A stretch of DNA of 64,000 nucleotides from Myxococcota bacterium (GCA_028284955.1 JANQQS010000102.1:76275-140274); one strand, 5' to 3'; shown: positions 39,807-64,000, counted from the first letter of the stretch. Program-made: numbers and translations. Notes: generated by a model from the letters alone, not told the origin.

Positions 39807-40817
39807 ATGCGTAGGAAGGCTGCCGGGGGATTTCGTGCCTCTTGGGGCTTAGAAAAAAGCAACGCGTTCGCCACGTGGACTCAACCAGCTTGGCGTCGAC
39901 TGAGCTCCGTGATGTTCTTGGGCGCCGTCGTGTTTCTGGCTCCGATCGCGCTGTCGATGGCGGTTGCGATCCCTAAGACTGCAGTCGCGCAGCCTTCGGA
40001 GGAAGAAGCGGCAGGGGATAGCCAACCCGCAGAGAGCGGCGCGGACGACTCGGCTGGTCCATCTGAAGGCGCACCAAGCGGCGCTTCGGAAGGCGAGCCT
40101 GCCGAAGCGGGTGCCAGCGCGGGAGGCGAGGCCGCGGGCAGTGCCGCCGCAGGAGCGGGCGCGGAAGGCGGAGCGACCGGCGAGTCGCCCGAGGGTGCGA
40201 GCGGAGAAACGACGACGTCTGCGGAACGAGATCCGGAAATGGACGCCGGCACCTACGCGGTTCGGCTTCGCGATCTCGAGCAACGCATCAACGAACTTAA
40301 GGAGCAGATCTTCCGTTCCAAGGCTCGGCTGTCGCTGCTCGCCGAAACGGTACTGCAAGGCGTCGTCGCAGGTGCTCAATCGGTCATCGTTCACGAGAAC
40401 CGAATGTCGTCGTCGTATCGTCTGGTCAAAGCGACGTATGCGCTTGACGGCGCGCCGATTTTCAATCGCGCGGACGAAGAGGGCACCCTCGGGGAGCGAG
40501 AGGAGTTCCAAGTATACAACGGCAGCATCGTGCCTGGTGAACACACACTTACTGTGAATCTCGAATACCGCGGCCATGGATATGGGATTTTCTCGTATCT
40601 GAAGGGCTACCGATTCAAAGTTCGGTCGAACTACTCGTTCACCGCGCCCGAGGGGCGGGCGGTTACCGTTCGGGTCGTGGGATACGAGAAAGGGGGGCCG
40701 ACCGCGCCCCTCGAGGAACGACCCGCGATTCGCTACGTCGAGCGAGTGTCTGATCGTTCGCGAAGGCCGCCCAGCGAATCTTCGGACGAATCTCAAGGAG
40801 ACGAGGGAGACCAATAA
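39807..40817 (+). CDS. Secreted protein with an acidic linker, a coiled coil and a beta-rich C-terminal domain; first gene of the glt/nfs-like operon
   Basis: The signal peptide is 'VMFLGAVVFLAPIALSMAVAIPKTAVAQ'. A Glu/Gly/Ala/Ser-rich ~90-aa linker follows, then the coiled coil 'VRLRDLEQRINELKEQIFRSKARLSLL' and the beta-rich segment 'YRLVKATYALDG...HTLTVNLEYRGHGYGIFSY'. The stop overlaps the next start (TAATG). Confidence 0.6.
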   Translation: MRRKAAGGFRASWGLEKSNAFATWTQPAWRRLSSVMFLGAVVFLAPIALSMAVAIPKTAVAQPSEEEAAGDSQPAESGADDSAGPSEGAPSGASEGEPAEAGASAGGEAAGSAAAGAGAEGGATGESPEGASGETTTSAERDPEMDAGTYAVRLRDLEQRINELKEQIFRSKARLSLLAETVLQGVVAGAQSVIVHENRMSSSYRLVKATYALDGAPIFNRADEEGTLGEREEFQVYNGSIVPGEHTLTVNLEYRGHGYGIFSYLKGYRFKVRSNYSFTAPEGRAVTVRVVGYEKGGPTAPLEERPAIRYVERVSDRSRRPPSESSDESQGDEGDQ

Positions 40818-43231
40818 TGACGCGCGCTTTGGGCTCGGCGAGGTCGGGCCGTGCAAACGTGCGTAGTGTGGCTGCCAGGGTGTCGCCGATCGTGGGAGTC
40901 GGGGCGCTATGCTGCGCCAGCGCAGTTGGCGTGGCGGCCGATGCTGAGGCTCAAAACGCCGAGGAAGTCGCCCGAGATCTCACCGCCATTGAGGGCGACG
41001 CCCAAAACCTGACGCGCCAACCGCTCAGGCGCGGTCGTCTGCGAAGTCGCACGCATGTAGAGGAGCGCCTTACCGACGGCGAGCTTTTCTATCGCCTTCA
41101 AGACTACATTCGCGCCAGCATCATTTTTACTGATATCGTCGATAACTATCCGCGCCATCGAGCATACCCGGACGCATTGTTCCTGCTCGCGGATTCGCTC
41201 TTCCAGGCGGGTGACTACCTCGGGGCTCGGGCAAAATTCCGAGTGGTTATCGATCGTGCCGGCGAACCTGCGTTTCGTCCTTATGTTCAGCGGGCGCTCG
41301 GCCGACTGATCGAAATCGCCATTCACATTCGGGACTTTGAAGGGGTGGAAGAACACTTTCAGCGTCTCAGTCGTTTGCCGCCGACCGAAGTGGAAGCCAC
41401 TACGGCCTACTTCCGCGCCAAGTATTTGTACAACAAGGCGGTTCCGGTCGACGAAGTGATGCGCGACGGGGACGATGCCGCGGCGATGCCGGAAGTAGAT
41501 TCCTCGACGCTCGAAGAGTCGCGCCGTGCATTCGAAGCGGTACCACAGGGTAGCCCCTACTACCCCCAAGCGCGATACTTCATCGGTGTGATCCACACGT
41601 TGCGGGGCGAGCTACCGCAGGCGATCGAAGCGTTCCGACGCGTGCTGCGGGGGAAAGGCGAGACGCTGGAGCATCGCAAGGTGGCTCACCTGACCCGCGT
41701 AGCCCTCGGCAGACTGTATTACGAGACGAATCAGCTCGACCAAGCGATCGAGGCATACCAGTCGGTTCCACGTACGTCGGAGCATTTCGATACCGCGCTC
41801 TATGAAATAGCCTGGGTCTACATTCGCCTGGGCGACGCGACTCGCGCGGAGCGGGCGCTCGAAGTGCTCTCGGTGGCAGCGCCGAGCAGTAAGTACATTC
41901 CAGACGGCAAGCTGCTGCGGGGCAATCTGCTGCTTCGAAACGGTCGCTTGGATGCCGCAAACAAGGTGTTCCGGTCGGTGCGCACGGAGTTCGGTCCGGT
42001 ATACCGAGAGCTCGAGGAGGTTCGTGAGCAACACGAAGACCTGCTCGGGTATTTTCGTGGGCTCGTTCGAGAGAATCTCGATACGTTCGATGCAGCGTCC
42101 ATCGTGCCGCCGAGTGCGCAGAAATGGACCACGCCGGGTAGCGACTTTGACCGCGCGATGTCCGCGCTGTCCGACCTGAGCCAATCGCGTCAGCTTGTTG
42201 CCGAAACAAGCGATCTCATTGTGCGCCTCAACGCTGCGATCGGTTCACCCAACCGCGTGAGTGTGTTTCCAGACTTGCGCTCTCAACGTGAACGGACGAC
42301 GGCCATTCGCAACCGTTTGGCTCGCGCACAGCGTGCGCTGATCCGAATCGAGGAATCCAACTCGTCAGGCGAAAGTGGGGAACTTCGCGAAGTCCGCGCG
42401 CAGCGGCGGCGCATCGAACGTTCGCTCGGTCGTATGCCCACCGACAACGACGATTTCATTATTCGAGACGACCAGTTGCTCAGTCGATATCGTCGGTTGC
42501 GGCGAGATTTGAGCGCACTCGAGGTCGAGCTGCTCGGTATCGAAGCACGAATCGTAGCCACCGATACGTTTGTCGGTGCCACTGCGAACGAGCAGCAAAA
42601 CGCCGAGGCGGTGACCAGCGAGCTCGGGCAGCACCGCGACGCAGTGGCGCGCTATCGTGAGCAGATCGCGGAGCTCGAGCGTCTGATCGAGATCGGTCGG
42701 ATCCAAGTGGGGGTAGGCGACGCACGCTATCGGCGGGACGACCGACTGCGGAATGAATATACGCAACTGCTTGAGCGCGAGCGCCGCTTGAGCGGCGGGC
42801 GACGGCCGGAGACAGACCGTTTGTTTGGGAAGATCGTTCGAGTGGAATCGATGCTCGATCGGCGCGATGCCCAGATCGAGCGCGTCGTCGAGGAACGCGT
42901 GAACGAGATGAAGCGGGTGATCGATGAAGAAAGCCAGAAGCTTACGGGCTATCAAGAATCGCTGGCTGCGCTCGAGGGCGAAACCGAAGAGGTGGTCGGT
43001 GCGGTGGCGTATGCGTCGTTCGGAGAGATTCGCGATCGGTTCTACAGCCTTGTACTACGCGCGGACGTCGGACGGATCGATGTGACGTGGGCGCGGCGCG
43101 AAGAGCACCGCACCCGTGTTGACATGCTGACCCGCGAGCGCTCCCGAGAGCTTCAGGCGCTCGACGACGAGTTTCGCGACATCATGGATGAACAGCCGGC
43201 CGGTGAGGAAGAAGAGGGAGGCGATCAGTGA
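40817..43231 (+). CDS. Periplasmic TPR plus long coiled-coil protein (GltC/NfsC-like position)
   Basis: The signal peptide is 'IVGVGALCCASAVGVAADAEAQ'. YbgF-like TPRs are present ('YRLQDYIRASIIF..YPRHRAYPDALFLLADSLFQAGDYLGAR'). About 350 aa of heptad-rich sequence and an acidic tail follow. Confidence 0.6.
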   Translation: MTRALGSARSGRANVRSVAARVSPIVGVGALCCASAVGVAADAEAQNAEEVARDLTAIEGDAQNLTRQPLRRGRLRSRTHVEERLTDGELFYRLQDYIRASIIFTDIVDNYPRHRAYPDALFLLADSLFQAGDYLGARAKFRVVIDRAGEPAFRPYVQRALGRLIEIAIHIRDFEGVEEHFQRLSRLPPTEVEATTAYFRAKYLYNKAVPVDEVMRDGDDAAAMPEVDSSTLEESRRAFEAVPQGSPYYPQARYFIGVIHTLRGELPQAIEAFRRVLRGKGETLEHRKVAHLTRVALGRLYYETNQLDQAIEAYQSVPRTSEHFDTALYEIAWVYIRLGDATRAERALEVLSVAAPSSKYIPDGKLLRGNLLLRNGRLDAANKVFRSVRTEFGPVYRELEEVREQHEDLLGYFRGLVRENLDTFDAASIVPPSAQKWTTPGSDFDRAMSALSDLSQSRQLVAETSDLIVRLNAAIGSPNRVSVFPDLRSQRERTTAIRNRLARAQRALIRIEESNSSGESGELREVRAQRRRIERSLGRMPTDNDDFIIRDDQLLSRYRRLRRDLSALEVELLGIEARIVATDTFVGATANEQQNAEAVTSELGQHRDAVARYREQIAELERLIEIGRIQVGVGDARYRRDDRLRNEYTQLLERERRLSGGRRPETDRLFGKIVRVESMLDRRDAQIERVVEERVNEMKRVIDEESQKLTGYQESLAALEGETEEVVGAVAYASFGEIRDRFYSLVLRADVGRIDVTWARREEHRTRVDMLTRERSRELQALDDEFRDIMDEQPAGEEEEGGDQ

Positions 43232-48704: not shown

Positions 48705-48997
48705 TGGGAAGCGCTATGCAAACATCAACATCCAGGATGCGGACAGTGTTCCTTGCCCTTTTGCTGATCTGCGGGCTTGCAGGATGGTTTTTGCCATCGA
48801 CGAGTCATGCGCAAGGTCGTGGTCGCCGTTCCGGGCCGCGGGTCATTCAGCTAGAAGAAATTCGGATAGAAGGCCGCGTGCAAAAGCCCAATGCCTTCTA
48901 CATTCTGAACCGCTCGAATCTTGGATACGAAGTGTTGGATCTACGAACCAGCTTTCTACGAGAAATCGTGCGGAGTGTACAACGCCCTCCTTTTTGA
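48701..48997 (+). CDS. Small (about 97 aa) signal-anchored protein, GltF/NfsF-like position
   Basis: The GTGATG start overlaps the upstream stop. The signal/anchor is 'VFLALLLICGLAGWFLPSTSHAQ'. The conserved-looking core is 'VIQLEEIRIEGRVQKPNAFYILNRS'. Confidence 0.55.
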   Translation: MMGSAMQTSTSRMRTVFLALLLICGLAGWFLPSTSHAQGRGRRSGPRVIQLEEIRIEGRVQKPNAFYILNRSNLGYEVLDLRTSFLREIVRSVQRPPF

Positions 48998-49044
48998 GCG
49001 GGTCTGGCCGTCCGTTTGTTTGAGTGTTTGGCGCTGTTTTGTCT

Positions 49045-49460
49045 GAGGGTTTGGCACCCAAACCCTCTCGTCGGGGTACGCCCCCGCCGATTCACCCAAG
49101 CTCCCCCGCCAGGAAGCACGTGACCTGGTTGCGTGAGGGTGAACTGCGGGGTCTCCGCCGCTTTGCGTCGGGGCGGCCGCGGAAGCGGCCGGAGTCGGGA
49201 GGGGGACCCGAGCGGGTCGTACCCGGAGGGTTTGCCTCAAACCCTCCAGAGAACACAGCTCCCCCTCCAGGATGCACGCGATCTGGTTGTCTAGTGGGTG
49301 AACTGCGGTGGTCAGTTCGCACAATCACCGCAACGAACGTGCAACGCGTAACCGGGGCCCCGTCGCGGAGCGATGGGGCGGCCGCGAACGCGGCCGGCGT
49401 CGGGAGGGGGGCCCCGCGGAATCGTATTCCGCGGGGGGAGGGGCTGCGGCCAGCCCCTCC
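49045..49460 (+). repeat. Structured intergenic region: two diverged copies of a ~160-210 bp unit, each with a perfect 10-bp hairpin and two conserved blocks, ending in two adjacent strong hairpins
   Basis: Hairpins are GAGGGTTTGG-cac-CCAAACCCTC (49045-49067) and GGAGGGTTTG-cct-CAAACCCTCC (49225-49247). Block 49099-49153 aligns with 49257-49313, and block 49169-49209 aligns with 49375-49415; the latter contains GGCCGC-ggaa-GCGGCC versus GGCCGC-gaac-GCGGCC. The terminal hairpins are 49412-49436 (11 bp) and 49437-49460 (10 bp). Confidence 0.8.
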
Positions 49461-49475
49461 AGAAATGAGCGCACT

Positions 49476-50069: not shown

Positions 50070-50214
50070 AGGGCCGCCCAGACCGCATCGCGCACCATGG
50101 GATGGACCAACACATGCTCCTGATGGTACGTTACGCCGAAACGATCGAAGTCGTTGGGGAACTTTTCCGTGGTACCGGACTCTTATACTTAGTCAGTGAG
50201 GGGAACGCGGCAGG

Positions 50215-51933: not shown

Positions 51934-51961
51934 TTGACAGGTAGGTCCGGCTCGGTATACT
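51934..51961 (+). promoter_or_regulatory. Near-consensus sigma70-type promoter (TTGACA, 16 nt spacer, TATACT) upstream of the 51988 gene
   Basis: Read directly in an otherwise GC-rich 316-bp gap. A GAGG Shine-Dalgarno motif lies 7 nt before the ATG at 51988. Confidence 0.45.
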
Positions 51962-51987
51962 CCTGCCCACTCTGACGAGGTTCTGCC

Positions 51988-52620: not shown

Positions 52621-52705
52621 CGAAAACGCCGACTCCGAGCTTATCGGAAGTACGATCAACTGAAATCGGGTCTACGTAGGCCCCTCTTGGGAAACTTATT
52701 AGTAC

Positions 52706-54070
52706 ATGACTTCAGGCGCCTTGGGTCATCGTAGCCTCGCTTACCACGGGCTTTTGTTTGCCACGACCTTGTTGCTCGCTCTCGCTGGCACGGCGTCATG
52801 GGGTTCTGGTAAGGCGGGCGCTCAAGCGTGGCTCCAAGATCGCGCTCGCGCCGAGGGTCCTGGTTTTCGTTTGGGTCGTCTCGAGTTGCATCCCGGAATC
52901 GGTGCAGAAGCGGGCTACGATTCAAACGTCTTTTTGTCTGATCAAAACGAAGTCGGCAGCGCGATTCTCCGCATCACTCCGCACCTCGACCTTGCGACAC
53001 TTGGTCCCCAACGAACCGACGACTTGGTGGAAGGCGATGAACAGCCGGTGCTCCCCAAGGTTGAGTTCCGAACCGGCGTTTCGGCCTCGCTTTATTACTT
53101 CTTTGACGACGCGCCTCAGAGCAACGTCGGCGTCGATGCGAATATGCGGCTCACGATCATGCCGGAGCGGCCGGTATCGTTCACCATATTCGATACCTAC
53201 TCTCGAAACATTCGCCCGTTCACGGAAGAAGGCGGCGGAAACGACTTTGCCCGAAACCAAAACGACGTCGGCGGCATGTTTACGTTTTCGTCGCGCGGCG
53301 GCGTGTTGACTGCCCGGGCAGGGTACACGCTCCGTGCTGACCTCTTCGAGAGCAACTCGTTCGACTACGCCAACAGTCTCACCCATCGCGGGGAGACAGG
53401 GATTACCTGGAGATTCCTGCCCCAGACGGCTCTCATTCACGATACGAGGGTCGACTATACGGACTACACCAGCAGTGCACCTTCCTCGCTTTTGCTGGGA
53501 GACAACACCCGCTTGCGATCGCGGGTGGGTGTCAATGGCGCACTGACTAAGAAGATTTCGTTTCTTGCCGCGGCGGGTTACGGCGCCGTGTTCATCTCGG
53601 ATGATGCATTTCGCGAGACAGACACCGTCGTGGCTCAAGGAGAGCTTCGCGTTCGTTTCCGGCCAGACTTGCGCTGGGCGTTGGGGTACGACCGTGACAT
53701 CGCCGGTTCCTTCGTAGGAAGTTTTTTCGTTCGAGATCGCGGATACACAAACTTGAATCTGCTCCTTGGAGGAGCATTTCTCCTCGGGGTGGAGGGCTCT
53801 GTATCCTACCTCGATTTCGGTTCTGCGCTTGAACCGGACGGCACCGCGCTTGGCGTAGGCGACACGACCGAACGTACCGATATCGTTGTGCGCGCGTCTT
53901 TGTTCGCGGAATATCGCTTCACCGATTGGCTCGCGATCAATGGGACTTTTGGGTACACCGCGGATTTCACGGACTTCGAGTTCACCCGCGTTGCGGCCAC
54001 CACGACGTTCCCGGACCCGGCCGACTTCCAGAAGTTTGAGGCTTGGTTTGGCGTTCGAGCATTCTACTAG
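52706..54070 (+). CDS. Outer-membrane beta-barrel protein of the polysaccharide-secretion type (Wzp/ExoB/EpsX-like)
   Basis: A signal peptide is present. 'LELHPGIGAEAGYDSNVF' is typical of EPS-associated barrels. Many alternating amphipathic strands follow, and the terminal 'FEAWFGVRAFY' has an aromatic last residue. Confidence 0.7.
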   Translation: MTSGALGHRSLAYHGLLFATTLLLALAGTASWGSGKAGAQAWLQDRARAEGPGFRLGRLELHPGIGAEAGYDSNVFLSDQNEVGSAILRITPHLDLATLGPQRTDDLVEGDEQPVLPKVEFRTGVSASLYYFFDDAPQSNVGVDANMRLTIMPERPVSFTIFDTYSRNIRPFTEEGGGNDFARNQNDVGGMFTFSSRGGVLTARAGYTLRADLFESNSFDYANSLTHRGETGITWRFLPQTALIHDTRVDYTDYTSSAPSSLLLGDNTRLRSRVGVNGALTKKISFLAAAGYGAVFISDDAFRETDTVVAQGELRVRFRPDLRWALGYDRDIAGSFVGSFFVRDRGYTNLNLLLGGAFLLGVEGSVSYLDFGSALEPDGTALGVGDTTERTDIVVRASLFAEYRFTDWLAINGTFGYTADFTDFEFTRVAATTTFPDPADFQKFEAWFGVRAFY

Positions 54071-54650: not shown

Positions 54651-55400
54651 GTGACTGATGGGGCGCCAGAGTCGACCCGCGGAGAAGCGGTTCGGCAGCA
54701 TTTCCTGCAGCCCGATCCGTATCTTTCGGGTCGGTTCAACATCGCTCTCCGCGCAGAGATCATCGCAGAGTTTGTCGGTGAACGGTCTGGATTGTCGGTG
54801 TTGGATATCGGATGCGGTGATGGCTCCCTTTCGCGGCAGTTCCTAGAAGCCGGAAGCCACGTGACCCATCTCGACTTATCGAGCGAGATGCTCAGGCGAG
54901 CCAAGATGAACGTCTCGTCGGACGCCTCCGAGCGCGCTCAGTTTGTTGAAGGGAGCTTTCTCGACCGCAGTCTTACGGAACAACTTTCTCGGAAACGTTT
55001 TGACCTTGTGCTCTGCGTCGGCGTCCTCGCCCACGTCGGAGATCTCGAAACGGCGGCCGCACGCCTCGCCGAGCTTACCGAGGCTGGTGGTCGCGTCATC
55101 GTTCAGTTTAGCGACTACCAACAGCCGTCCTATTGGCCCACTCTGGCATACCAGTTCTTGCGCAATCGAGTTCGAAATCCGTACGGGTACGAGCTTCGGC
55201 CGACTCCAGCGCGGAGAGTGAACAACGCGCTCTCGGCACAAGGGCTCAGGGTTCAAGCAGAACGTCGCTACTGGACGCCGCTCCCGGTTGTTCGACGATT
55301 CGTACCCGACGCGCGCCTTGACGCGTTCCAGCGCTTTACCCTTGAACATACGCTTCTCTCCCGATTCGGCTCGGAAGTCATGTGGCTGATGACGCGGTAA
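54651..55400 (+). CDS. Class I SAM-dependent methyltransferase
   Basis: Motif I is 'VLDIGCGDGSLSRQF', and 'FDLVLCVGVLAHV' follows. The GTG start lies directly after the OPX stop. Confidence 0.8.
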   Translation: MTDGAPESTRGEAVRQHFLQPDPYLSGRFNIALRAEIIAEFVGERSGLSVLDIGCGDGSLSRQFLEAGSHVTHLDLSSEMLRRAKMNVSSDASERAQFVEGSFLDRSLTEQLSRKRFDLVLCVGVLAHVGDLETAAARLAELTEAGGRVIVQFSDYQQPSYWPTLAYQFLRNRVRNPYGYELRPTPARRVNNALSAQGLRVQAERRYWTPLPVVRRFVPDARLDAFQRFTLEHTLLSRFGSEVMWLMTR

Positions 55401-55560: not shown

Positions 55561-55587
55561 ATGGTGAGCATGGTGAGCATGGTGCGA
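55561..55587 (+). repeat. 9-bp x3 tandem repeat (ATGGTGAGC ATGGTGAGC ATGGTGCGA) at the 5' end of the glycosidase gene
   Basis: Read directly. It creates three in-frame ATG codons ('MVSMVSMVRR'). Confidence 0.85.
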
Positions 55588-56721
55588 AGAGGAGTGTTTT
55601 GGGGTCGGCGTTTCGGCCCGTGGGGTGTCGCTGCAGCTGCGGCAATGACCGTTGCGTCGTCGGCATCCGCGCAGTTCCGAGACGCCGGAATTCCTAACCG
55701 AACGACAGATGCTGGGTTCGAGTTTGATCCCTCGCGCGCAGTAGAAGTCGAAGACGGAATACGCATCAACGGCTGGTTTGACGCGCACGGCGGAATCGAT
55801 CGCACTGAAGGGCGTTCGGAAAATCCCGAACAAATCGCACATGTATTGCGTATCGACCTTCAGTCTCGCGGGCTCAAGTTTTTATCGACGTCTTCGAACG
55901 AAGATTTTGATGGGGAAACGACCAGCCAGACCACTGCAGATTTTCTCAATCGACAGAACCTGCAGGCCGCGATCAACGCAAACCCCTACGATCCGTGTTG
56001 TTCGTTCGGTATGGAGCGCGAAGGAAAAAACCTGGAAGGCTTGGCGATTTCTCGGGGAGTGCTCGTGTCGGACGTCGCCGAATCAGCCTCTGCACCCGGA
56101 GGAGTTTCGCTCTTGATTTCTTCGGATAATCAGGCGCGCATCGAGAACGCGGAAGAGATTTCTGATGTGAGCAACGTGTGGACAGCCGTGTCGGGAGGGC
56201 CGCTCTTGCTCAAAGAAGGCGAGATCAAAGTAGAGGAGGGTGGAGGCCGCGAAGCGCGCTCTGCGGTCGGTCTATCCAGCGATCAACGCTACCTATTCAT
56301 GATGGTCATTGAGCGAAGCAATGACAGTGACGGGGCCAGCGACTATGAAACGGCGCGTTGGCTTCAGCGCTTCGGTGCTTCTGAAGGGCTGGCACTCGAC
56401 AGCGGGGATTCCAGCACGTTGGTGATGGAGCACGAACACGGGGGATCTGACGTTCTCAATTCGCTCACCAGCCAAGAGCGCAGCCATGGAAACAATCTCG
56501 GCGTGTTCGAGGGATCTGAAACCGCCAGCGCTTTCGACCCCTTTCAGAATCCTGCATCGTCCACGTTCCCAACCACCACGACAAGCCGGGGTGGGACGAC
56601 TTCGGGCTGCTCTATTTCGGGTCCTTGGACAGCCGGGGGAGCAAGCGCGCTCGTGATCGCGCTCGTTCCCCTAGTCGCGTTCATGCGGCGACGGTTCGCA
56701 GCGCGTCGACCACTCGATTGA
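55579..56721 (+). CDS. Phosphodiester glycosidase (NAGPA/DUF2233) family protein with a MYXO-CTERM-like sorting tail
   Basis: The signal peptide is 'MVRRGVFWGRRFGPWGVAAAAAMTVASSASAQ'. The family blocks are 'VSGGPLLLKEGE', 'ARSAVGLSSDQRYLFMMVIE' and 'ALDSGDSSTLVME'. The C-terminus is 'GGTTSGCSISGP..ASALVIALVPLVAFMRRRFAARR' (Gly/Cys motif, TM helix, Arg cluster). The start could also be 55531, 55561 or 55570. Confidence 0.75.
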   Translation: MVRRGVFWGRRFGPWGVAAAAAMTVASSASAQFRDAGIPNRTTDAGFEFDPSRAVEVEDGIRINGWFDAHGGIDRTEGRSENPEQIAHVLRIDLQSRGLKFLSTSSNEDFDGETTSQTTADFLNRQNLQAAINANPYDPCCSFGMEREGKNLEGLAISRGVLVSDVAESASAPGGVSLLISSDNQARIENAEEISDVSNVWTAVSGGPLLLKEGEIKVEEGGGREARSAVGLSSDQRYLFMMVIERSNDSDGASDYETARWLQRFGASEGLALDSGDSSTLVMEHEHGGSDVLNSLTSQERSHGNNLGVFEGSETASAFDPFQNPASSTFPTTTTSRGGTTSGCSISGPWTAGGASALVIALVPLVAFMRRRFAARRPLD

Positions 56722-57838
56722 TTTGCTCTTCAGTCATGCCGGGATAGAGAGGCAAAGAGAGCAGCTCGGACGAAATCGCTTCCGTGACCGGCAAGTCGCC
56801 TTCTTGATGGCCCCATCTTTCTCGATAAAAAGACATCAAATGCATGGGCTGAAAGTGGACCGAGTAGGCGATGTTTCGTGCCCGGAAATGTTCCATGACG
56901 CGTTCACGGTCCGGCGCGCCTCGGCTAGAGTCAAGGCGTACTGCGACGAGGTGATGCGCGGGGGTATCTTCGGGGTGCGCGGTCGCCTGAAAGCGAACGA
57001 AGGCGACGTCGGATAGCGCCTCGCGGTACTGAGCTGCGATCTTTGCTCGAGCTTCGATAAAGCTATCGAGTTTTTGAAGCTGCACCAGGCCGAGGGCGGC
57101 GTTGATGTCGGTGGTGTTGTATTTGAAACCGGCTGTGACGACGTCGTAGCGCCAGGTGCCGGTATTCGTATAGCGGCGCCATGCGTCTTTGGACATTCCA
57201 TGGAGACGCATGCGATGAACAGCGTCGGCAACTTCTTGAGAGCGGGTGGTGAGCATTCCTCCTTCACCGGTCGTCATGTTCTTGTTGGCGTAAAAGCTGA
57301 ACGCTGCCGCGTCCGCGTCTGCGCCGATGGGGCGCCCTCGGTAACGAGCTCCCGCGGCGTGCGCCGCATCCTCGATCAGAGCGATACCGCGGCGCGTGCA
57401 TAGCTCGCGAATCGGCGCGAGATCACACGGCAATCCCGCGTAGTGCACCGCGATGACCGCGCGCGTGCGCTCGGTGAGCCGGGGCTCGATGGTCGCGGCG
57501 GTGATGTTCCACGTTTCGGGGTCGATTTCTGCGAATACTGGCTTGGCGCCCACGTGGCAGATGACATTCGCTGTGGCGGCGAACGTGAGCGACGAGGTCA
57601 CGACTTCGTCTTCCGAGCCTACGCCGAGCGCGAGCAAGGCGAGATGAAGACCGGCCGTGCATGAGTTGAGGGCTTTGGCGTGCTCTGCGCCGCAGTAGCG
57701 CTGAAACGCCTGTTCGAATTCGGCGGTGCGTGGCCCCATCGTCACCCATCCGCTCCGCAACGTGGCCACGACGGCCTCGATCTCCTGGTCGTCGATGCTT
57801 GGCTTGAAAAAGGGGATCGGAGGCGGAGAATCAGGCAT
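56681..57838 (-). CDS. DegT/DnrJ/EryC1/StrS-family sugar aminotransferase
   Basis: 'IPFFKPSIDDQEIEAVVATLRSGWVTMGPRTAEFEQAFQRY..LNSCTAGLHLAL' and 'FSFYANKNMTTGEGG' (PLP-Lys region). The ATG at 57838 overlaps the upstream stop. The 3' end overlaps the convergent glycosidase gene by 41 nt. Confidence 0.9.
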   Translation of the reverse strand: MPDSPPPIPFFKPSIDDQEIEAVVATLRSGWVTMGPRTAEFEQAFQRYCGAEHAKALNSCTAGLHLALLALGVGSEDEVVTSSLTFAATANVICHVGAKPVFAEIDPETWNITAATIEPRLTERTRAVIAVHYAGLPCDLAPIRELCTRRGIALIEDAAHAAGARYRGRPIGADADAAAFSFYANKNMTTGEGGMLTTRSQEVADAVHRMRLHGMSKDAWRRYTNTGTWRYDVVTAGFKYNTTDINAALGLVQLQKLDSFIEARAKIAAQYREALSDVAFVRFQATAHPEDTPAHHLVAVRLDSSRGAPDRERVMEHFRARNIAYSVHFQPMHLMSFYRERWGHQEGDLPVTEAISSELLSLPLYPGMTEEQINRVVDALRTVAA

Positions 57839-58997
57839 GCGGCAAACCCTTACGTGCGAGTAATCGGTCATACACCGCGGCGGTCTTTTCCGCCGCGCGC
57901 CGAACATCAAAGAGCGACTGCGCGCGTGCACCCGCGGCTGCACCGAGCCGCGTTCGGAGGTCAGAATCGGACGCAAGAAGGCACATCGCCCGGGTCAGAG
58001 CGTGATGATCGGAGGGGGGCACGATCAACCCGGTCTCGTCGCGAGCGACCACTTCGCGGCAGCCACGAACATCGGTGGTGATCGCGGGTTTGTTCATCGC
58101 GGCAGCTTCCATAAGCACGCGGGGCCAACCTTCGGTGGCGTTTTTGTCGCTTGCGAGAACCACCACGTCGGCTGCGGCGTACAGGTTCGGCATGTCATTT
58201 CTCCGTCCAAGCCATCGCACATGCGGGTCGCCCGGCGTCTCGCCATTTGATTGGGTGACCGCATCGCGCTTTTCACGATCCGCTTCTCCGACGAGCGCCA
58301 GTTTGATTCGCGGGTCGGTGCGCGACGCAGACCGAGCGGCTTCGAGTACGTCGAACACGCCCTTTGCACGCACCAGCCGTCCCGCCGCGAGGAACAATAC
58401 ATCGGAATCTTGAAGTCCGAGTTCATGGCGTATGGTGCGCCGCTCCGCTGCGCGGTTCGGCGAGAAGCGATCGAGATCGATTCCATTGCCTACGAGCGTT
58501 ACTTTGTCCGGAGAGACGGCTCCGGATCGAATGATCGTATTCGCGTCTTCTCGCGATTGCGCGAGCACCGCGTCGACCCGGATGCTGGCGATACGCTCGA
58601 GTGAGCTATGAAGCGCGCGCTGCGGTTCCTTGGTTTCGAGCGAATACGCGAGGCCGTGCATGGTGTGCACGATAATCGGCGTTTGCGCGATGGCGGCAAG
58701 CACGCGACCCATCAACCCGACTTTGGTGGCGTGGGTATGAACGATATGGAATCGATGCTGCCGAAAATGTTGAAGCAACTCCGCGGCGCCCACACAGTCT
58801 ATGTCGAGCCGAGCGCCGCGAGTGATCCGGTGAGGAAGCCATGCTGCGCCATCGGGGGAGGGCTGCTCCGCGCGAGGGCCGCGCGGCGTTATGTTCCATA
58901 CCGACCATCCTCGACGGACCAGCGGCTGGTTGTAGGGAACTCCCCAAGGGATGCCGAGGTCGGAAGACCAAGCGTGGGCGAGGCGGACGGAGGTCAT
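57831..58997 (-). CDS. Family-4 (GT-B) glycosyltransferase
   Basis: 'FHIVHTHATKVGLMGRV', 'LFLAAGRLVRAKGV' and 'EGWPRVLMEAAAMNKPAITTDVRGCREVV' (E-x7-E region). The real start is the ATG at 58997 (ATGA overlap with the upstream stop). The 262-aa Arg-rich N-terminal part of the 650-aa ORF overlaps the upstream gene and is rejected. Confidence 0.88.
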   Translation of the reverse strand: MTSVRLAHAWSSDLGIPWGVPYNQPLVRRGWSVWNITPRGPRAEQPSPDGAAWLPHRITRGARLDIDCVGAAELLQHFRQHRFHIVHTHATKVGLMGRVLAAIAQTPIIVHTMHGLAYSLETKEPQRALHSSLERIASIRVDAVLAQSREDANTIIRSGAVSPDKVTLVGNGIDLDRFSPNRAAERRTIRHELGLQDSDVLFLAAGRLVRAKGVFDVLEAARSASRTDPRIKLALVGEADREKRDAVTQSNGETPGDPHVRWLGRRNDMPNLYAAADVVVLASDKNATEGWPRVLMEAAAMNKPAITTDVRGCREVVARDETGLIVPPSDHHALTRAMCLLASDSDLRTRLGAAAGARAQSLFDVRRAAEKTAAVYDRLLARKGLPHA

Positions 58998-60025
58998 GGG
59001 TGATGCTCCGCGGTAGGCAAGAGGGCTCTCAGGGCCAGCACGGAGTTGATGGGGACAAAACCACATCGCGCGTAGAGCCGCAATGCGGCGTCGTTGCGCA
59101 GCTGGGTGCCGACTTCGACAAACGCGGCTCCCGCGCTTCGGCACCAATCGACGGTGGTGCGGATCAACCCTCGCCCGATGCCCTGGCCGCGTGCTTGCTC
59201 GGCGACGCCAACCAGCCATATCTTGGCGACGAGACGATTGAAATGTCGCTCGGCTCCGCGATTCAGACGAACGGTCATGAAGCCCATCACGTCCGAGCCG
59301 CAGCTCGCGACGAACACTGCGTCGTCCAATCCCCGGCAGGAGTTTTCGATCCACGCCGCATAGGCAGCGTCGGCACGCGAGGCGTCGATGCTCGGGTCGG
59401 CGTGCAGGCGGTCGGTGCGGTATGCAGTTTTGGCGATGTCTCGGAGCGCGGGAATGTCGGTGTCTTGCCACGGTCGGTAGTCGACGCCGGTTGCACCCGC
59501 GGTTTCTCGGTCGTCCGTTGTGGGGTTCGTATGGTTCGCGAGGGGGAGCGTCCAATGCTGCACCGCATCGAGGGTGACGAAACCTTTGCGCTCGAGCAGG
59601 TGCAGAAGGGCGATCTCTTCCATGTCGATGCGGATGGTGATGTGCGTGAGCTCGCGGGCTTTCAGACGATCGAGCGCCCGCGCGAGCAACGCTTCTCGGA
59701 ACACGTCGGCGTGGGGGCTCGATTCGTCGACCATCAGCGGTCCCACGAAGCCCGCGCGAATGCCGAGCGCTTCTGATTCCCAATCGCGCGGGCCAAGGAT
59801 CACAAACCCTTCTGACTCGTTGGCGCTCGATGTCGCGCGGATGGAAAAGGCTTCTACGCCCTCTGCGCGCAGTTGATGCAGAGCGACTTCTTGGTGGTAG
59901 GCGACCGTCGCGTCCAGCGGTAGCTCGGGATAGTAGTGGAAGGCGCGCCCGCGATGCTGGGCGATGATTCCGGGCACGATCGCTCTCTTTGCGCTCTCGC
60001 CGCCGTCAATCGGCTCGATGATCAT
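58994..60025 (-). CDS. GNAT-family N-acetyltransferase, two-lobed (WecD/TDP-fucosamine acetyltransferase-like architecture)
   Basis: The acetyl-CoA site is 'IWLVGVAEQARGQGIGRGLIRTTVDWCRSAGAAFVEVGTQLRNDAALRLYARCGF'. The N-terminal ~170 aa form a second GNAT-like lobe. The start is ATG 60025 (alternative TTG 60094). Confidence 0.75.
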   Translation of the reverse strand: MIIEPIDGGESAKRAIVPGIIAQHRGRAFHYYPELPLDATVAYHQEVALHQLRAEGVEAFSIRATSSANESEGFVILGPRDWESEALGIRAGFVGPLMVDESSPHADVFREALLARALDRLKARELTHITIRIDMEEIALLHLLERKGFVTLDAVQHWTLPLANHTNPTTDDRETAGATGVDYRPWQDTDIPALRDIAKTAYRTDRLHADPSIDASRADAAYAAWIENSCRGLDDAVFVASCGSDVMGFMTVRLNRGAERHFNRLVAKIWLVGVAEQARGQGIGRGLIRTTVDWCRSAGAAFVEVGTQLRNDAALRLYARCGFVPINSVLALRALLPTAEHHP

Positions 60026-60707
60026 CAAGTAGATCTCCAATGATCGAATCAAACCGAAAAGGGCGAATGCCCAAAGGAAGGCAGAGGGTTGCAATCACGA
60101 TTTTCAGATCCAGGGCCAAGCTCCATGCGTCGACGTACCGCAAATCGATCTGAATTCTCGTTTTCCAGGGAATACGGTTGCGGCCGAGTACCGCTGCGAG
60201 GCTCGTGATTCCGGGAGGGACGCAGAGCTTTCGGCGCTCCTCCCAAGTGTACATGGATTCGTGTTCCACCATATCGGGGCGCGGCCCGACGAGGCTCATT
60301 TCTCCGCGAAGCACGTTGAGCAACTGGGGAAGCTCATCGAGCCCGCCGCGAAGCAAAGCGCCTAGCTTCGTGATGCGTGCGTCCCGTTTTCCGATAAACG
60401 TCGAGCCGTCCGCGTTGAACTGCACCGGGGCGTGTTCGACCATGGTGCGAAACTTGTAGACGTCGAAATGTGCTCCGTTTTGTCCGACGCGCTTTTGGCG
60501 ATAAAGCGCGCCTCCGGGGCTCTCCAAACGAATGGCCGCCGCGACCAGCGCGCCAAAGGGAGCTCCGCAAGCGATCGTCACTGCTGCTGCGCTGCGATCG
60601 ATGGCTCGCTTGAGTGAGAATTGTCGCGGTTTACGTTGTTCAGGAGCTCGCGCGTCGGCCCGGATGTCTCGGTCAGGCGTGCCCGCCACGGCAGCGTGGG
60701 CGTTCAT
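60006..60707 (-). CDS. Small monotopic phosphoglycosyl transferase (bacterial sugar transferase, PglC/WbaP-C-terminal type)
   Basis: 'KRAIDRSAAAVTIACGAPFGALVAAAIRLESPGGALYRQKRVGQNGAHFDVYKFRTM' and 'DELPQLLNVLRGEMSLVGPRP'. The ATG at 60707 overlaps the upstream stop (ATGA). Confidence 0.9.
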   Translation of the reverse strand: MNAHAAVAGTPDRDIRADARAPEQRKPRQFSLKRAIDRSAAAVTIACGAPFGALVAAAIRLESPGGALYRQKRVGQNGAHFDVYKFRTMVEHAPVQFNADGSTFIGKRDARITKLGALLRGGLDELPQLLNVLRGEMSLVGPRPDMVEHESMYTWEERRKLCVPPGITSLAAVLGRNRIPWKTRIQIDLRYVDAWSLALDLKIVIATLCLPLGIRPFRFDSIIGDLLDDHRAD

Positions 60708-61399
60708 CGTACAATCTCCCGAACCACCACGAAGGGCTCGGCGTACGCGCAGGCGGCCCACTGGCCCCAATAGGCGGCGCGAGTTTTGAGCGCTTCGAGC
60801 GATCGAGGATGGGGAGCAGGTCGTAGCTCCGACGTGTAGCAAGCCATCGCTTCCAGTTTCCGCTCTAGCGTGCGTTCGATATCGACAAAGCGCGTGGGCA
60901 CAAACTGCAGCGATTCAGCGGGGATTCCCCACTCGGTTGAGGACGGCGTCTCGTACGCGTAGAGCGCGTTTGGCGCGTGCGGGTTCGGAGGCCTACAGGC
61001 CACTGCGGACGCGTTCGATACGATTCCATGATCACTGTTGATATCGCCCCAATGGTGCGTGTACGCCACGTCGGGCTGAATTTCTCGAAGCTGCGCTTCA
61101 ATCGCCTGGACGATGTCGATGAGCGGAACGGTTTCGAGCTTCTGATCGGGAAGCCCCAGAAACCGCACGTTGGAAATACCGAGAACGCTTGCGGCCTTGT
61201 GGCAGGCTTGCTCGAGTTCGGACTTTGCGGAATCAGCATACCGCGACGAAGCGCCTTCCGACGCGATCACGACTGAGACGTCGTCTCCGCGATCGACGTG
61301 TCGGGCGACGGTTCCCCCAAGCCCGAGCAGCTCATCGTCGGGGTGGGCGGAGATGACGAGGACGCGTCTGTGCGGAGGGGTGCTGGTTGCTTCATTCAT
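60704..61399 (-). CDS. PIG-L/LmbE-family N-acetylglucosaminyl deacetylase
   Basis: 'RVLVISAHPDDELLGLGGTVARH' and 'HHWGDINSDH' are the zinc-binding motifs. I chose the ATG at 61399. The upstream 175 aa of the ORF are Ser/Arg-rich junk that overlaps the WbqC gene. Confidence 0.88.
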   Translation of the reverse strand: MNEATSTPPHRRVLVISAHPDDELLGLGGTVARHVDRGDDVSVVIASEGASSRYADSAKSELEQACHKAASVLGISNVRFLGLPDQKLETVPLIDIVQAIEAQLREIQPDVAYTHHWGDINSDHGIVSNASAVACRPPNPHAPNALYAYETPSSTEWGIPAESLQFVPTRFVDIERTLERKLEAMACYTSELRPAPHPRSLEALKTRAAYWGQWAACAYAEPFVVVREIVR

Positions 61400-61439: not shown

Positions 61440-62138
61440 TCAATCAGGTCTTTGTGAATCGATGAGGTGACGCGCGTCGCGGCCGAGAAATGCCCATGCG
61501 TCGAGCGCGCTGAGTCCGCCTCGTTGGTCTTCGGGGAGCTCCTTGTCGCCCCGGTAGCTGGGAATCGAGAAGTTCTGTACCTCGATTGCGATGTCCGCCT
61601 TTGCGAACGACTCTTGGTCGAGATAGGTCGCGCCAGTCCGCCCGGCAATGTAGCGCGAGGCGCGGAACTGGCGGCAAATCTCGAGAACGAGGTCCCCCTT
61701 GGTAGCGGTGAGTTCGAGGGTCGATGAGCGCACGACCTTGCCGGGATGGACGCCGAACGCGTCGAGGAGCATGTCCACGCTTGCACAACCAACATCGACC
61801 AGTCGATCGTAGTCCGAGGTGTAGAAACGATCGACGGCTTCTCGCATGGCATCGAACCCTGGCGCCCGACCGTAGGCCGCGACGATCGACTTGAAGTGCT
61901 TCTTCTTCCAGCGTTGATCCACAATGCGCACTTCGTCGATTTGCTGCGGAAACGCGTGCACGTAGGGGATGGTGAGCCAAAAGGGGCCGTTTGAACCGGA
62001 AATGCGGGCTCGGTGTTGCAAACTGGAACGGTCGAACTGAACGTGATCGAGCAGTACCAGCACGTCTGCGCGTTGCGCCTTGTCGAGAAAGCCGAGCCAC
62101 GGAAAGTATTCGGGCTGATGAATCACAACCGTACTCAT
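61440..62138 (-). CDS. WbqC-family protein (O-antigen/amino-sugar cluster-associated, function unknown)
   Basis: 'VVIHQPEYFPWLGFLDKAQRADVLVLLDHVQFDRSSLQHRARI' matches the WbqC N-terminal pattern. Confidence 0.8.
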   Translation of the reverse strand: MSTVVIHQPEYFPWLGFLDKAQRADVLVLLDHVQFDRSSLQHRARISGSNGPFWLTIPYVHAFPQQIDEVRIVDQRWKKKHFKSIVAAYGRAPGFDAMREAVDRFYTSDYDRLVDVGCASVDMLLDAFGVHPGKVVRSSTLELTATKGDLVLEICRQFRASRYIAGRTGATYLDQESFAKADIAIEVQNFSIPSYRGDKELPEDQRGGLSALDAWAFLGRDARHLIDSQRPD

Positions 62139-62192
62139 GGGTAGGTGGCCTTTGTCATGGCTGCACCGGGGCCATTGGCTGCACCGTGGACA

Positions 62193-63476
62193 TCATGGCT
62201 GCACCGGGCTCAGTGCGCCGAGCACCACACGAAGCGATTGCACCACCTGCTCGGCATCCTGCAGGGTCATGGCGGCATGCATGGGAAGCGTGATTTGCCT
62301 CGGAAGGATCGATTCCGCAACCGGAAGCGCGGCCGCCCAGGTGGCGCCCGAGGAGGTGGCACCCGAGGAGGTGGCACCCGAGGAGGTGGCGCCCGAGGAG
62401 CTGTCGCGCGCTTGCGCGTCGCGCTGGAACACGGGCATTTGATGACACGGCGGGCTGTAGAGCGCGCCGATCTCGATCTGGTGCTCTCTAGCCATGGCCT
62501 GCCGGAGCGTGTGTCGATCCACGCCTTCGGGAATCAGTACGGGATACTTGTAGTAGGCGGGGGCGGCATCGGTGCGTGGCGAGGGAAGGGTGATTGCGCC
62601 GCGGTCCGGGGGACTGTCCTCGAGCAACTCGTCGTAGCGCGCCGCGATTGCCCTGCGTACGGAAAGAAACTCGTCGAGCCGTCGAAACTGGTTGAGCGCC
62701 ACCACGGAGCGCACTTCATCGAGCACCCAGTCGTTCCCTGGTCGTTCGATATGTTCGAGCGACGCGCCTTGTCCGTGGTGGCGAAGCGAGCGAGCGTAGT
62801 CTGCGAGTTCGTCGTCGTCGGTGGTAAGCATTCCGCCCACCCCGCAGGTGAGTATCTTGGTGGGATAGAATGAAAAACACCCTGCGTAGCCGAGGCTTCC
62901 CGCTTCCTTGTCGGAAGGGCCTGTCCCATCCGCACGGGAGACGTTGAGCGTTGCGCCATGGGCGTGCGCGCAATCCTCGACGATCGGAATCGAGCGTTTG
63001 CGGCATGCTTCGGTGAGCGCGTCGAGCCCTTTCGGAATGAAGCCGGCCACGTGCACCACAACGACGGCGGCGGTGCGGTCGCTCAAGCGCGCGATGGCGT
63101 CTTCCGCGTCGATTCCGTAGTCGTCTTGGTTCATGTCGGCGAAGATCGGAGTCCCGCCCGCGAATCGAACCGCGTTCGCGGTGGCGACGAACGTATTGGT
63201 GGGGACGATCACTTCTCGCCCCGCCACGTTGAGGAATCGGAATACGATCTCCAGCGCGGCGGTGCAGCTGGTCAGTGAAATCGCATGCTTCGTGCCGACA
63301 CGTGCGGCAAACGCTGCCTCGAGCTCCCTCGACTGCGGACCCAGAATCAAGCGACCGCCGCGCAATACGTCCCCAATCGCAGCGGTGATGGTGCGAATGT
63401 CTTCTTCGACGAAGTGCGGGCGGGCCGCGGAAATTGTTCGTTTGGATGCCGGCGTGCGTTCGGGGGGGCTCGTCAT
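62193..63476 (-). CDS. DegT/DnrJ/EryC1/StrS-family sugar aminotransferase carrying an in-frame (GATSS)4 insertion
   Basis: 'ARPHFVEEDIRTITAAIGDVLRGGRLILGPQSRELEAAFAARVG..LTSCTAALEIV' and 'FSFYPTKILTCGVGG'. The ATG at 63476 overlaps the upstream stop (ATGA). Confidence 0.88.
   Translation of the reverse strand: MTSPPERTPASKRTISAARPHFVEEDIRTITAAIGDVLRGGRLILGPQSRELEAAFAARVGTKHAISLTSCTAALEIVFRFLNVAGREVIVPTNTFVATANAVRFAGGTPIFADMNQDDYGIDAEDAIARLSDRTAAVVVVHVAGFIPKGLDALTEACRKRSIPIVEDCAHAHGATLNVSRADGTGPSDKEAGSLGYAGCFSFYPTKILTCGVGGMLTTDDDELADYARSLRHHGQGASLEHIERPGNDWVLDEVRSVVALNQFRRLDEFLSVRRAIAARYDELLEDSPPDRGAITLPSPRTDAAPAYYKYPVLIPEGVDRHTLRQAMAREHQIEIGALYSPPCHQMPVFQRDAQARDSSSGATSSGATSSGATSSGATWAAALPVAESILPRQITLPMHAAMTLQDAEQVVQSLRVVLGALSPVQP
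62341..62400. repeat. Four tandem 15-bp units (GTGGCRCCCGAGGAG) inside the aminotransferase gene
   Basis: Read directly. On the minus strand it encodes 'SSSGATSSGATSSGATSSGAT'. Confidence 0.9.
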
Positions 63477-64000
63477 GGTGTCTTGCTCGTGTGTTGCATC
63501 ATCTGAACGAGTTCGTTCATCCCGTGCTCGAGAGACACCGAAGGTTGCCATTCGAGGGCGGCCTCTGTGAGCTGTATATCGAGACTGCGGGTCGGCCAGG
63601 TTTTTCCGGGCGGCGCTTCTTGTCGGACGATTGTGGGCTGCGATCCAAGGCGCGCTCCCGATTCCTTCGCGGCCGCGGCAAGCTCCGCGATGGTGTATGT
63701 TTGACCGCTTCCGATATTGAGGGCGGGAGGGAGCGGTTCGCGATCGAGCGCGCGCTCAAACGCTCGGGTTACATCGTCCACATGCACGAGGTCGAGGCGC
63801 TGTTGCCCGTCGCCGTACATGGTGATGTCCCCGCCGCTCGCAGCGGCGCGCGCGAAACGCTCGGCGACGCCCTGAATACCCAAGTCGACCCCGATGCCTG
63901 CGCCATACACATTGGCCATCCGGAGGGCGGTGCCCCCGCCCCATGCCGACCACGCATGTTCGGCGGAGTCTTTAAGGGTGCCGTATAGGTCGTCTGGTTC
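63473..64000 (-). CDS. NAD-dependent sugar epimerase/dehydratase (SDR family), C-terminal part; the 5' end lies beyond the window
   Basis: The frame is open to base 64000: 'EPDDLYGTLKDSAEHAW' is the YxxxK catalytic motif, followed by 'RMANVYG' and 'GDGQQRLDLVHVDDV'. Confidence 0.85.
   Translation of the reverse strand, partial: EPDDLYGTLKDSAEHAWSAWGGGTALRMANVYGAGIGVDLGIQGVAERFARAAASGGDITMYGDGQQRLDLVHVDDVTRAFERALDREPLPPALNIGSGQTYTIAELAAAAKESGARLGSQPTIVRQEAPPGKTWPTRSLDIQLTEAALEWQPSVSLEHGMNELVQMMQHTSKTP

Follow-up and report, generated by a model that had tools for sequence, protein, structure and literature searches.

Gene content of the locus

The 64,000-nt stretch of DNA analyzed here (Myxococcota bacterium, GCA_028284955.1, JANQQS010000102.1:76275-140274), hereafter called the window, has a G+C content of about 62%, and its gene content, in which PEGA-domain Ser/Thr kinases and a DUF4388 protein occur, looks like that of Myxococcota. 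Our subject is a run of eleven co-directional genes at 39807-54650, which codes for a set of Glt-like envelope proteins, a small lipoprotein, a beta-barrel of the outer membrane, and a short outer-membrane polysaccharide export (OPX) protein of class 3 (Table 1). The OPX gene is followed on the same strand by genes for a methyltransferase and a NAGPA glycosidase, on which an eight-gene amino-sugar operon converges from the minus strand. Gene order and sequence identity point to a counterpart in Myxococcus xanthus, where the Glt paralog cluster G4 lies beside the WzpB/WzaB export pair, and the block is conserved among myxobacterial relatives. We assigned the open reading frames (ORFs) of the window to families with Pfam and NCBIfam profiles and assessed homology to the Myxococcus locus with tblastn and BLASTP.

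Table 1. Features of the Glt-like/export block and its downstream genes. Coordinates count from the first base of the window; lengths of MXAN_1919 to MXAN_1923 are those of Luciano et al. 2011 (PMC3169522). aa, amino acids; TM, transmembrane; PGT, phosphoglycosyl transferase.
Feature	Coordinates	Strand	Evidence and remarks	M. xanthus counterpart
Promoter-like TTGACC-17 nt-TATAAG	39704..39733	+	Ahead of g1; read directly, missed by consensus scan (second hexamer ends in G)	
g1	39807..40817	+	Secreted or membrane-anchored; acidic low-complexity region, coiled coil, beta-rich C-terminal domain	
GltC-like TPR protein, 804 aa	40817..43231	+	NF033756 1.3e-30 (below cutoff); Pfam TPR	MXAN_1923 (809 aa)
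GltD-like large TPR protein, 1363 aa	43228..47319	+	Pfam TPR	MXAN_1922 (G4 GltD homolog, 1111 aa)
GltE-like TPR lipoprotein, 462 aa	47316..48704	+	NF033758 2.4e-32 (below cutoff)	MXAN_1921 (490 aa)
GltF-like small protein, 98 aa	48701..48997	+	Signal/TM segment	MXAN_1920 (91 aa)
Three-TM diverged TolQ/ExbB/AglR-like stator subunit, ~200 aa	49440..50069	+	Gene call in Logan contig; profile search	
GltG-like TonB-type inner-membrane protein, 485 aa	50215..51672	+	NF033760 1.1e-47 (below cutoff); TonB_C	MXAN_1919 (447 aa)
Sigma-70-like TTGACA-16-TATACT, 11/12	51934..51961	+	27 nt before lp210 ATG, within the 315-nt gap past the GltG-like gene	
lp210, lipoprotein-like, 210 aa	51988..52620	+	Coiled coil, Pro-rich tail	MXAN_1917 (187 aa)
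Outer-membrane beta-barrel, WzpB-type porin partner of OPX	52706..54070	+	Weak BBP2_2 match 9.7e-6	MXAN_1916
Short class 3 OPX lipoprotein, WzaB-type, 200 aa	54048..54650	+	Pfam Poly_export and one SLBB	MXAN_1915
S-adenosylmethionine-dependent methyltransferase	54651..55400	+	Methyltransf_25/31/12/11 ~1e-17; starts one base past OPX stop	
NAGPA-family phosphodiester glycosidase	55579..56721	+	PF09992 1e-21	
DegT sugar aminotransferase (last gene of operon)	56681..57838	-	PF01041 6.9e-128; ArnB/PseC-like ~1e-118 to 1e-120 (below cutoff)	
GT4 glycosyltransferase	57831..58997	-	Glycos_transf_1 1.5e-32; Glyco_transf_4 1e-17	
GNAT N-acetyltransferase, WecD-like	58994..60025	-	Acetyltransf_1 8.5e-17	
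Short Bac_transf PGT, PglC-type initiating, 233 aa	60006..60707	-	PF02397 1.4e-53	
PIG-L family de-N-acetylase	60704..61399	-	PF02585 3.5e-25	
WbqC-family protein	61440..62138	-	PF08889 1.6e-52	
Second DegT aminotransferase	62193..63476	-	PF01041 1.6e-88; start probably 63476 (ATGA overlap with SDR stop), from reading frames	
SDR epimerase/dehydratase (first visible gene of operon)	63473..64000	-	Epimerase C-terminal half 8.6e-11; cut by window end	

The GltD-like TPR protein and the GltC-, GltE-, and GltG-like proteins found with it in one cluster are components of the Glt/Nfs-family envelope core (Group B of Luciano et al. 2011). Their scores against the GltC, GltE, and GltG models (NF033756, NF033758, and NF033760) all fall far below the NCBIfam equivalog cutoffs, so that they are homologs of the motility proteins and not those proteins themselves. 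The GltG-like match to NF033760 spans profile positions 194-647, and the same protein scores 91 bits against NF033768 (AgmX/PglI C-terminal domain), above the cutoff of 40. Its family is large, with 1153 matches at E<=1e-5 in 90%-identity clusters and 712 at E<=1e-30 among 50%-identity representatives. The GltE-like gene overlaps the GltD stop codon in an ATGA and encodes a protein with the lipobox LGSAC, and the GltF-like protein is kept in all relatives at 55-94% identity. The block opens with g1, whose ATG at 39807 is preceded by a GGGAGG ribosome-binding site. This protein matches no Pfam or NCBIfam family and is not recognizable as a GltA/B barrel; it is nevertheless the best-conserved protein of the block, its C-terminal ~190 aa being 62-91% identical in 56 relatives. 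An AlphaFold model of that C-terminal domain, built from the one sequence, was unusable (pLDDT 47.8). As to the outer-membrane components GltA/B/H/K (NfsA/B/H), profile scans of g1 and lp210 gave no family match, and neither protein looks like a barrel.

A gene for a three-TM protein lies between the GltF- and GltG-like genes. Pfam alone gives it no match, and a profile of six homologs places TolQ at the top (8odt, E=8e-4), followed by three more TolQ entries and then ExbB, with all alignments over TM2-TM3. The gene is optional: it turned up in no more than about 12 of 80 relatives and so is probably a relic. No scanned ORF of the window matches MotA_ExbB or ExbD, as an AglRQS-type motor would, and this diverged gene is the sole stator-like one; a motor may come from genes in another part of the genome, as it does in M. 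xanthus. The arrangement recalls gltC-D-E-(X)-aglR-Q-S-gltG, the ancestral Glt core that Luciano et al. (2011) describe for Geobacter and Gammaproteobacteria, in that C, D, and E precede G and a TolQ-family gene occupies the aglR position between E and G. Unlike its counterpart in that core, the window gene is highly diverged and has neither of the two TolR/ExbD partners, and most relatives lack it.

The second half of the block begins with lp210, which matches no Pfam or NCBIfam family and no Glt/Nfs model. It is kept in relatives at 43-63% identity, and its order relative to the barrel and OPX genes is shuffled in two loci (L037 and L067). The barrel protein carries a signal peptide and ends in a C-terminal ...RAFY aromatic motif, and 23 nt of its gene are shared with the OPX gene. 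The OPX protein has the lipobox FAVAC, lacks the Wza_C outer-membrane helix, and ends with its SLBB domain. A helix-less OPX and an adjacent WzpB-homologous barrel gene are among the hallmarks of a class 3 OPX/beta-barrel translocon. The best characterized match of the OPX protein is WzaB, at 162 bits versus 101 bits to the EpsY model, and its alignment with M. xanthus sWzaB (PDB 9N9A; E=1.4e-46) runs through the last residue of 9N9A. The Arg106-Arg107 motif of WzaB (VRRPQ, residues 103-107), which has been reported as essential for contact with the polysaccharide co-polymerase (PCP), reads LRAPQ in the window protein, where the first Arg alone is kept.

An earlier note on this DNA, made from the sequence alone, had described a Glt/Nfs-like machine followed by an Exo-like export and biosynthesis locus. 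Every element that it listed is present where it had been placed, and the gap that it gave between lp210 and the barrel gene is exactly 85 nt (52620 to 52706). All eight families that it named for the minus-strand operon are borne out by Pfam matches. Its inventory missed the two plus-strand genes behind the OPX gene, and its description of the 210-aa gene as the last glt/nfs-like gene does not hold, since lp210 matches no such model and is instead a homolog of MXAN_1917. The note had also found no Wzx, Wzy, or Wzc/PCP gene, and our profile scans agree: no Wzx, Wzy, or Wzz/PCP domain was detected in any long ORF of the window. Exact-protein look-ups with WbqC and PIG-L, aimed at sequence past base 64000, gave no record, and the one indexed contig of this sequence is an 18-kb Logan contig.

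The block is collinear with G4 and WzpB/WzaB of Myxococcus

Luciano et al. 2011 (PMC3169522) described three paralogous Glt clusters in M. xanthus, G3 (nfs), G4, and G5; the gltD homolog of G4 is MXAN_1922, and the function of the cluster is unknown. Saïdi et al. 2022 (PMC9603273) assigned both members of the OPX/porin pair in the biosurfactant polysaccharide (BPS) pathway: WzaB is MXAN_1915, and WzpB is MXAN_1916. We reached the corresponding Myxococcus locus (L086) through the WzaB sequence of PDB 9N9A, identified as M. xanthus sWzaB in a 2026 Nature Communications paper, which led to a Myxococcus protein and from there to its locus. The locus contains co-directional genes for proteins of 809, 1110, 489, 91, 447, 148, 187, 432, and 204 aa, separated by short gaps. 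The sizes fit an assignment of MXAN_1923 as GltC, MXAN_1922 as GltD, MXAN_1921 as GltE, MXAN_1920 as GltF, and MXAN_1919 as GltG, and they fit WzpB (MXAN_1916) and WzaB (MXAN_1915) as well; judging from these sizes, the motility-homolog column for MXAN_1919-1923 in the table of Luciano et al. appears to be printed in reverse order.

The window proteins match those of the Myxococcus locus in order throughout. Within the Glt-like half, the GltC-like protein is 26% identical to its counterpart (E=1.6e-18), the GltD-like protein 28% over 1199 aa to the 1110-aa protein (E=6e-104), the GltE-like protein 28% (E=6e-40), the GltF-like protein 49% over 57 aa to the product of the 91-aa gene (E=1e-14), and the GltG-like protein 34% over 462 aa (E=9e-58, and 4e-62 in a second comparison). 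The match continues with lp210 (35% over 130 aa of the 187-aa protein, E=4e-22 and 4e-25), the barrel (33% over 200 aa of the MXAN_1916 homolog, E=2e-15 and 6e-17), and the OPX protein (51% to WzaB, E=3e-49). The two loci thus share the order C-D-E-F-G, with similar protein sizes (Table 1), followed by the MXAN_1917 homolog and then by a short OPX gene right behind a barrel gene of ~430-450 aa. They differ in that identity across the G4 genes is only 26-49%, that the window has an additional TolQ-like gene separating F from G, and that the cNMP-binding MXAN_1918 is missing from it. The fetched Myxococcus locus begins inside MXAN_1923 and covers nothing upstream, where a g1 homolog would sit. 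Stigmatella aurantiaca (L089) has the same gene order. The 148-aa cNMP-binding protein, which occupies the MXAN_1918 position between the GltG-like gene and the lp210 homolog in Myxococcus (7503-7949 of L086), is absent from Stigmatella as well as from the window.

Taken together, identity and collinearity make the window locus very probably the homolog of MXAN_1923-1915, that is, of G4, MXAN_1917, WzpB, and WzaB. The assignment to G4 in particular would follow from collinearity that includes MXAN_1917, WzpB, and WzaB. We found no prior report of G4 lying beside wzpB/wzaB in the open-access literature on OPX/porin pairs and BPS, the 2026 structure paper, or a 2026 preprint, under either old or new locus tags.

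Synteny is conserved across relatives

To assess how widely the arrangement is shared, we scanned one genome per GTDB species with an eight-sequence GltG-like alignment, which yielded 80 loci from relatives 59-74% identical, and mapped the window proteins onto them by tblastn. The genome of the window is not itself among the GTDB representatives, and the best match is 74% identical. The closest relatives are metagenome-assembled genomes of Polyangiales, Polyangiaceae, and Sandaracinaceae. Three GltG-like homologs (64-71% identical) are embedded in the same order from g1 to OPX, and the genes past OPX differ. Across the wider set, the barrel and OPX genes lie directly behind the GltG-like gene in 47 of the 52 loci with at least 4.5 kb of downstream sequence. 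Two of the five exceptions (L049 and L065) are 100-N scaffold joins, which leaves 47 of 50 informative loci. Upstream, g1 and the C, D, E, and F genes are present in 56 of 60 loci with enough DNA. Synteny in relatives, on which the earlier note had let its interpretation depend, is therefore conserved in these loci as well as in Myxococcus and Stigmatella, and we confirm that the adjacency of the Glt-like genes and the export pair exceeds chance.

The two halves also share one evolutionary history. In Mantel comparisons of pairwise distances over 39 loci, the barrel and OPX proteins correlate with GltD and GltG at r=0.94-0.95, as highly as the Glt genes correlate among themselves (r=0.88-0.98). 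These comparisons replaced a per-locus Spearman correlation of identity to the window, which was uninformative owing to narrow identity ranges. Because synteny is retained and the distance correlation is as high as within the Glt genes, we take the conserved unit to extend from g1 to OPX. In one relative (L016), the main block lies head-to-head with a second Glt-like block, a diverged one at 784-6358 on the minus strand. It consists of D, E, F, and G plus an lp210-like gene (33-63% identity); lp210-like genes therefore also accompany another paralog.

Genes behind the export pair are variable

Past OPX, about 25 to 26 of 39 loci encode a sugar 6-dehydrogenase accompanied by an epimerase and by a PglF-like dehydratase, 9 of 39 encode a PCP-2A (Wzz-GNVR-kinase), and 5 to 7 of 39 encode a Wzy_C+TPR protein. 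In Sandaracinus-type relatives, the Glt block, export pair, sugar dehydrogenase, Wzy, and PCP-2A kinase are all contiguous. Unlike 26 of these 39 relatives, the window has no sugar 6-dehydrogenase. It has instead the methyltransferase and NAGPA genes, which are not conserved at this position in relatives, and the minus-strand operon. That a phosphodiester glycosidase is encoded beside an exporter gives a hint that some phosphodiester-linked sugar is processed.

The operon is predicted to specify a polymer of an N-acylated amino- or diamino-deoxy sugar, unlike the ManNAcA-rich BPS associated with WzpB/WzaB. An initiating PGT and a GT4 glycosyltransferase, both components of a Wzx/Wzy-type pathway, are present in the window. 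The short Bac_transf protein aligns only to the C-terminal ~190 positions of long PGT models, and the GNAT protein matches the dTDP-4-amino-4,6-dideoxygalactose acyltransferase model at 1.8e-24, below the cutoff. The reading frame of the short-chain dehydrogenase/reductase (SDR) gene contains a YGTLK motif and stays open through base 64000. The second DegT protein bears a tandem SSGAT x4 repeat near its C-terminus (about 62310-62375, minus strand), an unusual low-complexity insertion for this family.

No examined relative has the complete amino-sugar cassette beside the block; only scattered single-family homologs (GT4, DegT, PGT) occur there. The closest WbqC homologs sit in epimerase-DegT-WbqC-(PIG-L)-PGT cassettes, and no Glt genes were found in the 10-kb flanks of these cassettes, one of which could be assessed on one side only (L088, whose contig ends ~0.8 kb past WbqC). 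We accordingly rejected a tie between the amino-sugar operon and the Glt/export block, as the nearest homologs of its genes lie in other contexts and the cassette is absent beside the blocks of relatives. The operon is a variable, swappable add-on outside the conserved unit.

A candidate envelope partner for a class 3 translocon

We favor a reading, to which we assign a probability of about 0.6, in which a G4-type Glt cluster and a WzpB/WzaB-type export pair form a conserved unit with a strain-variable glycan cassette behind it. The corresponding mechanism would start with the minus-strand operon, which would build a repeat unit linked to undecaprenyl-PP. The short PglC-type transferase would initiate this unit, the SDR protein, the two DegT aminotransferases, the WecD-like GNAT protein, PIG-L, and WbqC would supply the N-acylated amino- or diamino-deoxy sugar, and the GT4 enzyme would extend it. 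Flipping and polymerization of the units would then fall to the flippase Wzx, the polymerase Wzy, and a tyrosine kinase of the PCP type; their genes would lie beyond the window, and Wzy and PCP genes do adjoin OPX in several relatives. The polymer would leave the cell through the short lipoprotein OPX docked under the beta-barrel porin, as suggested by their homology to WzaB and WzpB, whose composite translocon has been experimentally established in M. xanthus (Saidi 2022 PMC9603273; Schwabe 2022 PMC9601211; PMC12819527). The Glt-like proteins could serve as an envelope-spanning scaffold composed of the TonB-like inner-membrane GltG, the periplasmic or lipoprotein TPR proteins GltC/D/E, GltF, and g1. 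By analogy with Agl-Nfs acting on spore-coat glycan and Agl-Glt acting on slime, this scaffold may position, move, or organize the translocon or the polymer at the cell surface, presumably powered by a TolQR/AglRQS-type proton motor encoded elsewhere.

The functional analogy behind this mechanism is the Agl-Nfs/Exo pairing (Wartel 2013, PMC3858216), in which a Glt-family complex is likewise matched to a glycan of Wzx/Wzy type that leaves by way of a short OPX and a barrel. The window differs from it in that nfs and exo are unlinked in M. xanthus and that Nfs A, B, and H components were not detected here. Whether the two conserved halves are also functionally coupled is close to an even question in our judgment, leaning slightly to the negative. 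In favor of coupling, each of the two characterized paralogs, Glt and Nfs, acts on a secreted glycan (Wartel 2013, PMC3858216), and the unit is conserved across two myxobacterial classes. Islam et al. 2020 described mxan_1915 as "orphan-like," 1.016 Mb from the other BPS genes and contiguous with them in Sandaracinus amylolyticus, with which our Sandaracinus-type loci (OPX, dehydrogenase, Wzy, PCP-2A) agree. In M. xanthus, the export pair thus stayed with G4 when it was split from its own biosynthesis genes, which supports coupling.

Several observations weigh on the other side. Conserved adjacency and correlated distances are also compatible with pure vertical co-inheritance. The export pair is partly or wholly lacking in three loci (L075, L081, and L085), where ORF maps are ambiguous at high GC. 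The window contains no ExbD/TolR motor genes, and Wzx, Wzy, and PCP genes are missing from it. Because of the sigma-70-like site before lp210 and the 315-nt gap in which it lies, lp210, barrel, OPX, methyltransferase, and NAGPA genes may be transcribed separately from the Glt half; such sites are no more numerous in the region than expected by chance, and this one is only suggestive. In M. xanthus, Luciano et al. (2011) disrupted MXAN_1922 by a polar insertion, which "did not impact motility at any appreciable level," soft agar included, and BPS-minus mutants are severely impaired in swarm spreading dependent on type IV pili. G4 is therefore probably not essential for BPS export, and the MXAN_1922 insertion is apparently not polar on wzpB/wzaB.

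Some of these points also bear on the alternative that the halves are inherited neighbors without coupling: two independent systems adjacent since an early myxobacterial ancestor, with the Glt-like set doing other work, such as envelope maintenance or handling other cargo. Such a history would be expected to yield correlated distance matrices, as any vertically co-inherited genes would, and it accommodates the promoter-like site and gap between the halves as well as the lack of a motility or swarm phenotype in the MXAN_1922 mutant, where wzaB mutants have one. The WzaB/WzpB papers, moreover, treat the pair with WzcB as sufficient and make no mention of G4. Set against this, the adjacency has been kept across two myxobacterial classes while the upstream regulator (extracytoplasmic function [ECF] sigma factor or sigma-54 regulator) and the downstream cassettes vary, the M. 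xanthus pair remained with G4 after its separation from its own biosynthesis genes, and lp210 shuffles within the barrel/OPX pair yet remains in the unit. We regard mere co-inheritance as rather unlikely, if clearly the strongest of the rival explanations. The interpretation of the earlier note, an Nfs-like spore-coat machine fused to an Exo-like pathway and acting in sporulation, draws on a general family resemblance: GltC/D/E/G-like proteins, a short OPX with a barrel, an aminotransferase, an acetyltransferase, and an initiating transferase. Judged from gene order, family profiles, and the Myxococcus locus, it is improbable, given that the full collinearity is with G4, MXAN_1917, WzpB, and WzaB and not with nfsA-H, no NfsA/B/H-type barrels were detected, g1 and lp210 bear no Glt/Nfs signature, the OPX protein is 51% identical to WzaB, the initiating transferase is of the short PglC type, and conservation of the block does not extend to the amino-sugar operon. 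A bona fide gliding (Agl-Glt) machine with slime exported next door is less probable still. GltC/D/E/G homology would suit it, as would the binding of slime, a polysaccharide, by the Glt complex; all matches fall far below the equivalog cutoffs, GltA/B/H/K barrels, GltI, GltJ, and AglRQS are all missing from the block, and the orthologous cluster of M. xanthus is dispensable for gliding (Luciano 2011).

The observation of the earlier note is thus confirmed and its interpretation partly supported. Its Nfs/Exo labels give way to G4 and WzpB/WzaB. Its statement that the two halves are separate in M. xanthus is correct for nfs and exo and incorrect for the G4 paralog, which is contiguous with WzpB/WzaB; because M. 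xanthus has this same arrangement, the locus is not a new Nfs-Exo fusion and belongs to a known, though uncharacterized, kind. Of the self-contained surface-glycan module that it had envisaged, the contiguous and conserved Glt-like and barrel/OPX halves stand, the amino-sugar operon does not belong to the conserved unit, and the proposed "secrete and spread" function would follow by analogy.

Returning to the conserved G4-export unit, we tentatively propose a more specific role, which we consider possible but less probable than coupling in general. The G4-type paralog would be a dedicated envelope partner of the WzpB/WzaB-type class 3 translocon, a third Glt-family machine with its own polysaccharide, in which a TolQR-like motor would position the export site or spread the polymer. 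Each machine might then have its glycan (slime for Glt, the spore-coat glycan for Nfs, and a BPS-type polymer for G4), and the gene unit would be the genomic signature of the last pairing across Myxococcota. The class 3 OPX/porin field describes WzpB-WzaB-WzcB as the whole trans-envelope route, and the function of G4 has been open since 2011; here, G4 and the WzpB/WzaB pair emerge as one inherited gene unit from Myxococcus to Polyangiales. If the coupling is true, the idea of motor-driven glycan handling, so far applied to sporulation and gliding, would take in a secreted polymer of surfactant type as well; if it is not, the locus is an unremarkable case of two known gene families that happen to travel together. 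Its main value lies in the hypothesis that this linkage provides for G4, which is testable in the tractable M. xanthus.

Upstream regulator and distant neighbors

The gene divergent from the block (38110-39621, minus strand) encodes a sigma-54 NtrC-type response regulator. Given this activator, we searched for a sigma-54 site and found no consensus upstream of g1 on the plus strand, and whole-window counts match chance. In about 25 relatives, the upstream position is occupied by an ECF sigma factor, and homologs of the regulator lie past OPX in two loci (L071 and L073). A second TonB_C/TonB_2 protein (445 aa) is encoded at 19764-21101 on the minus strand, ~30 kb upstream of the block.

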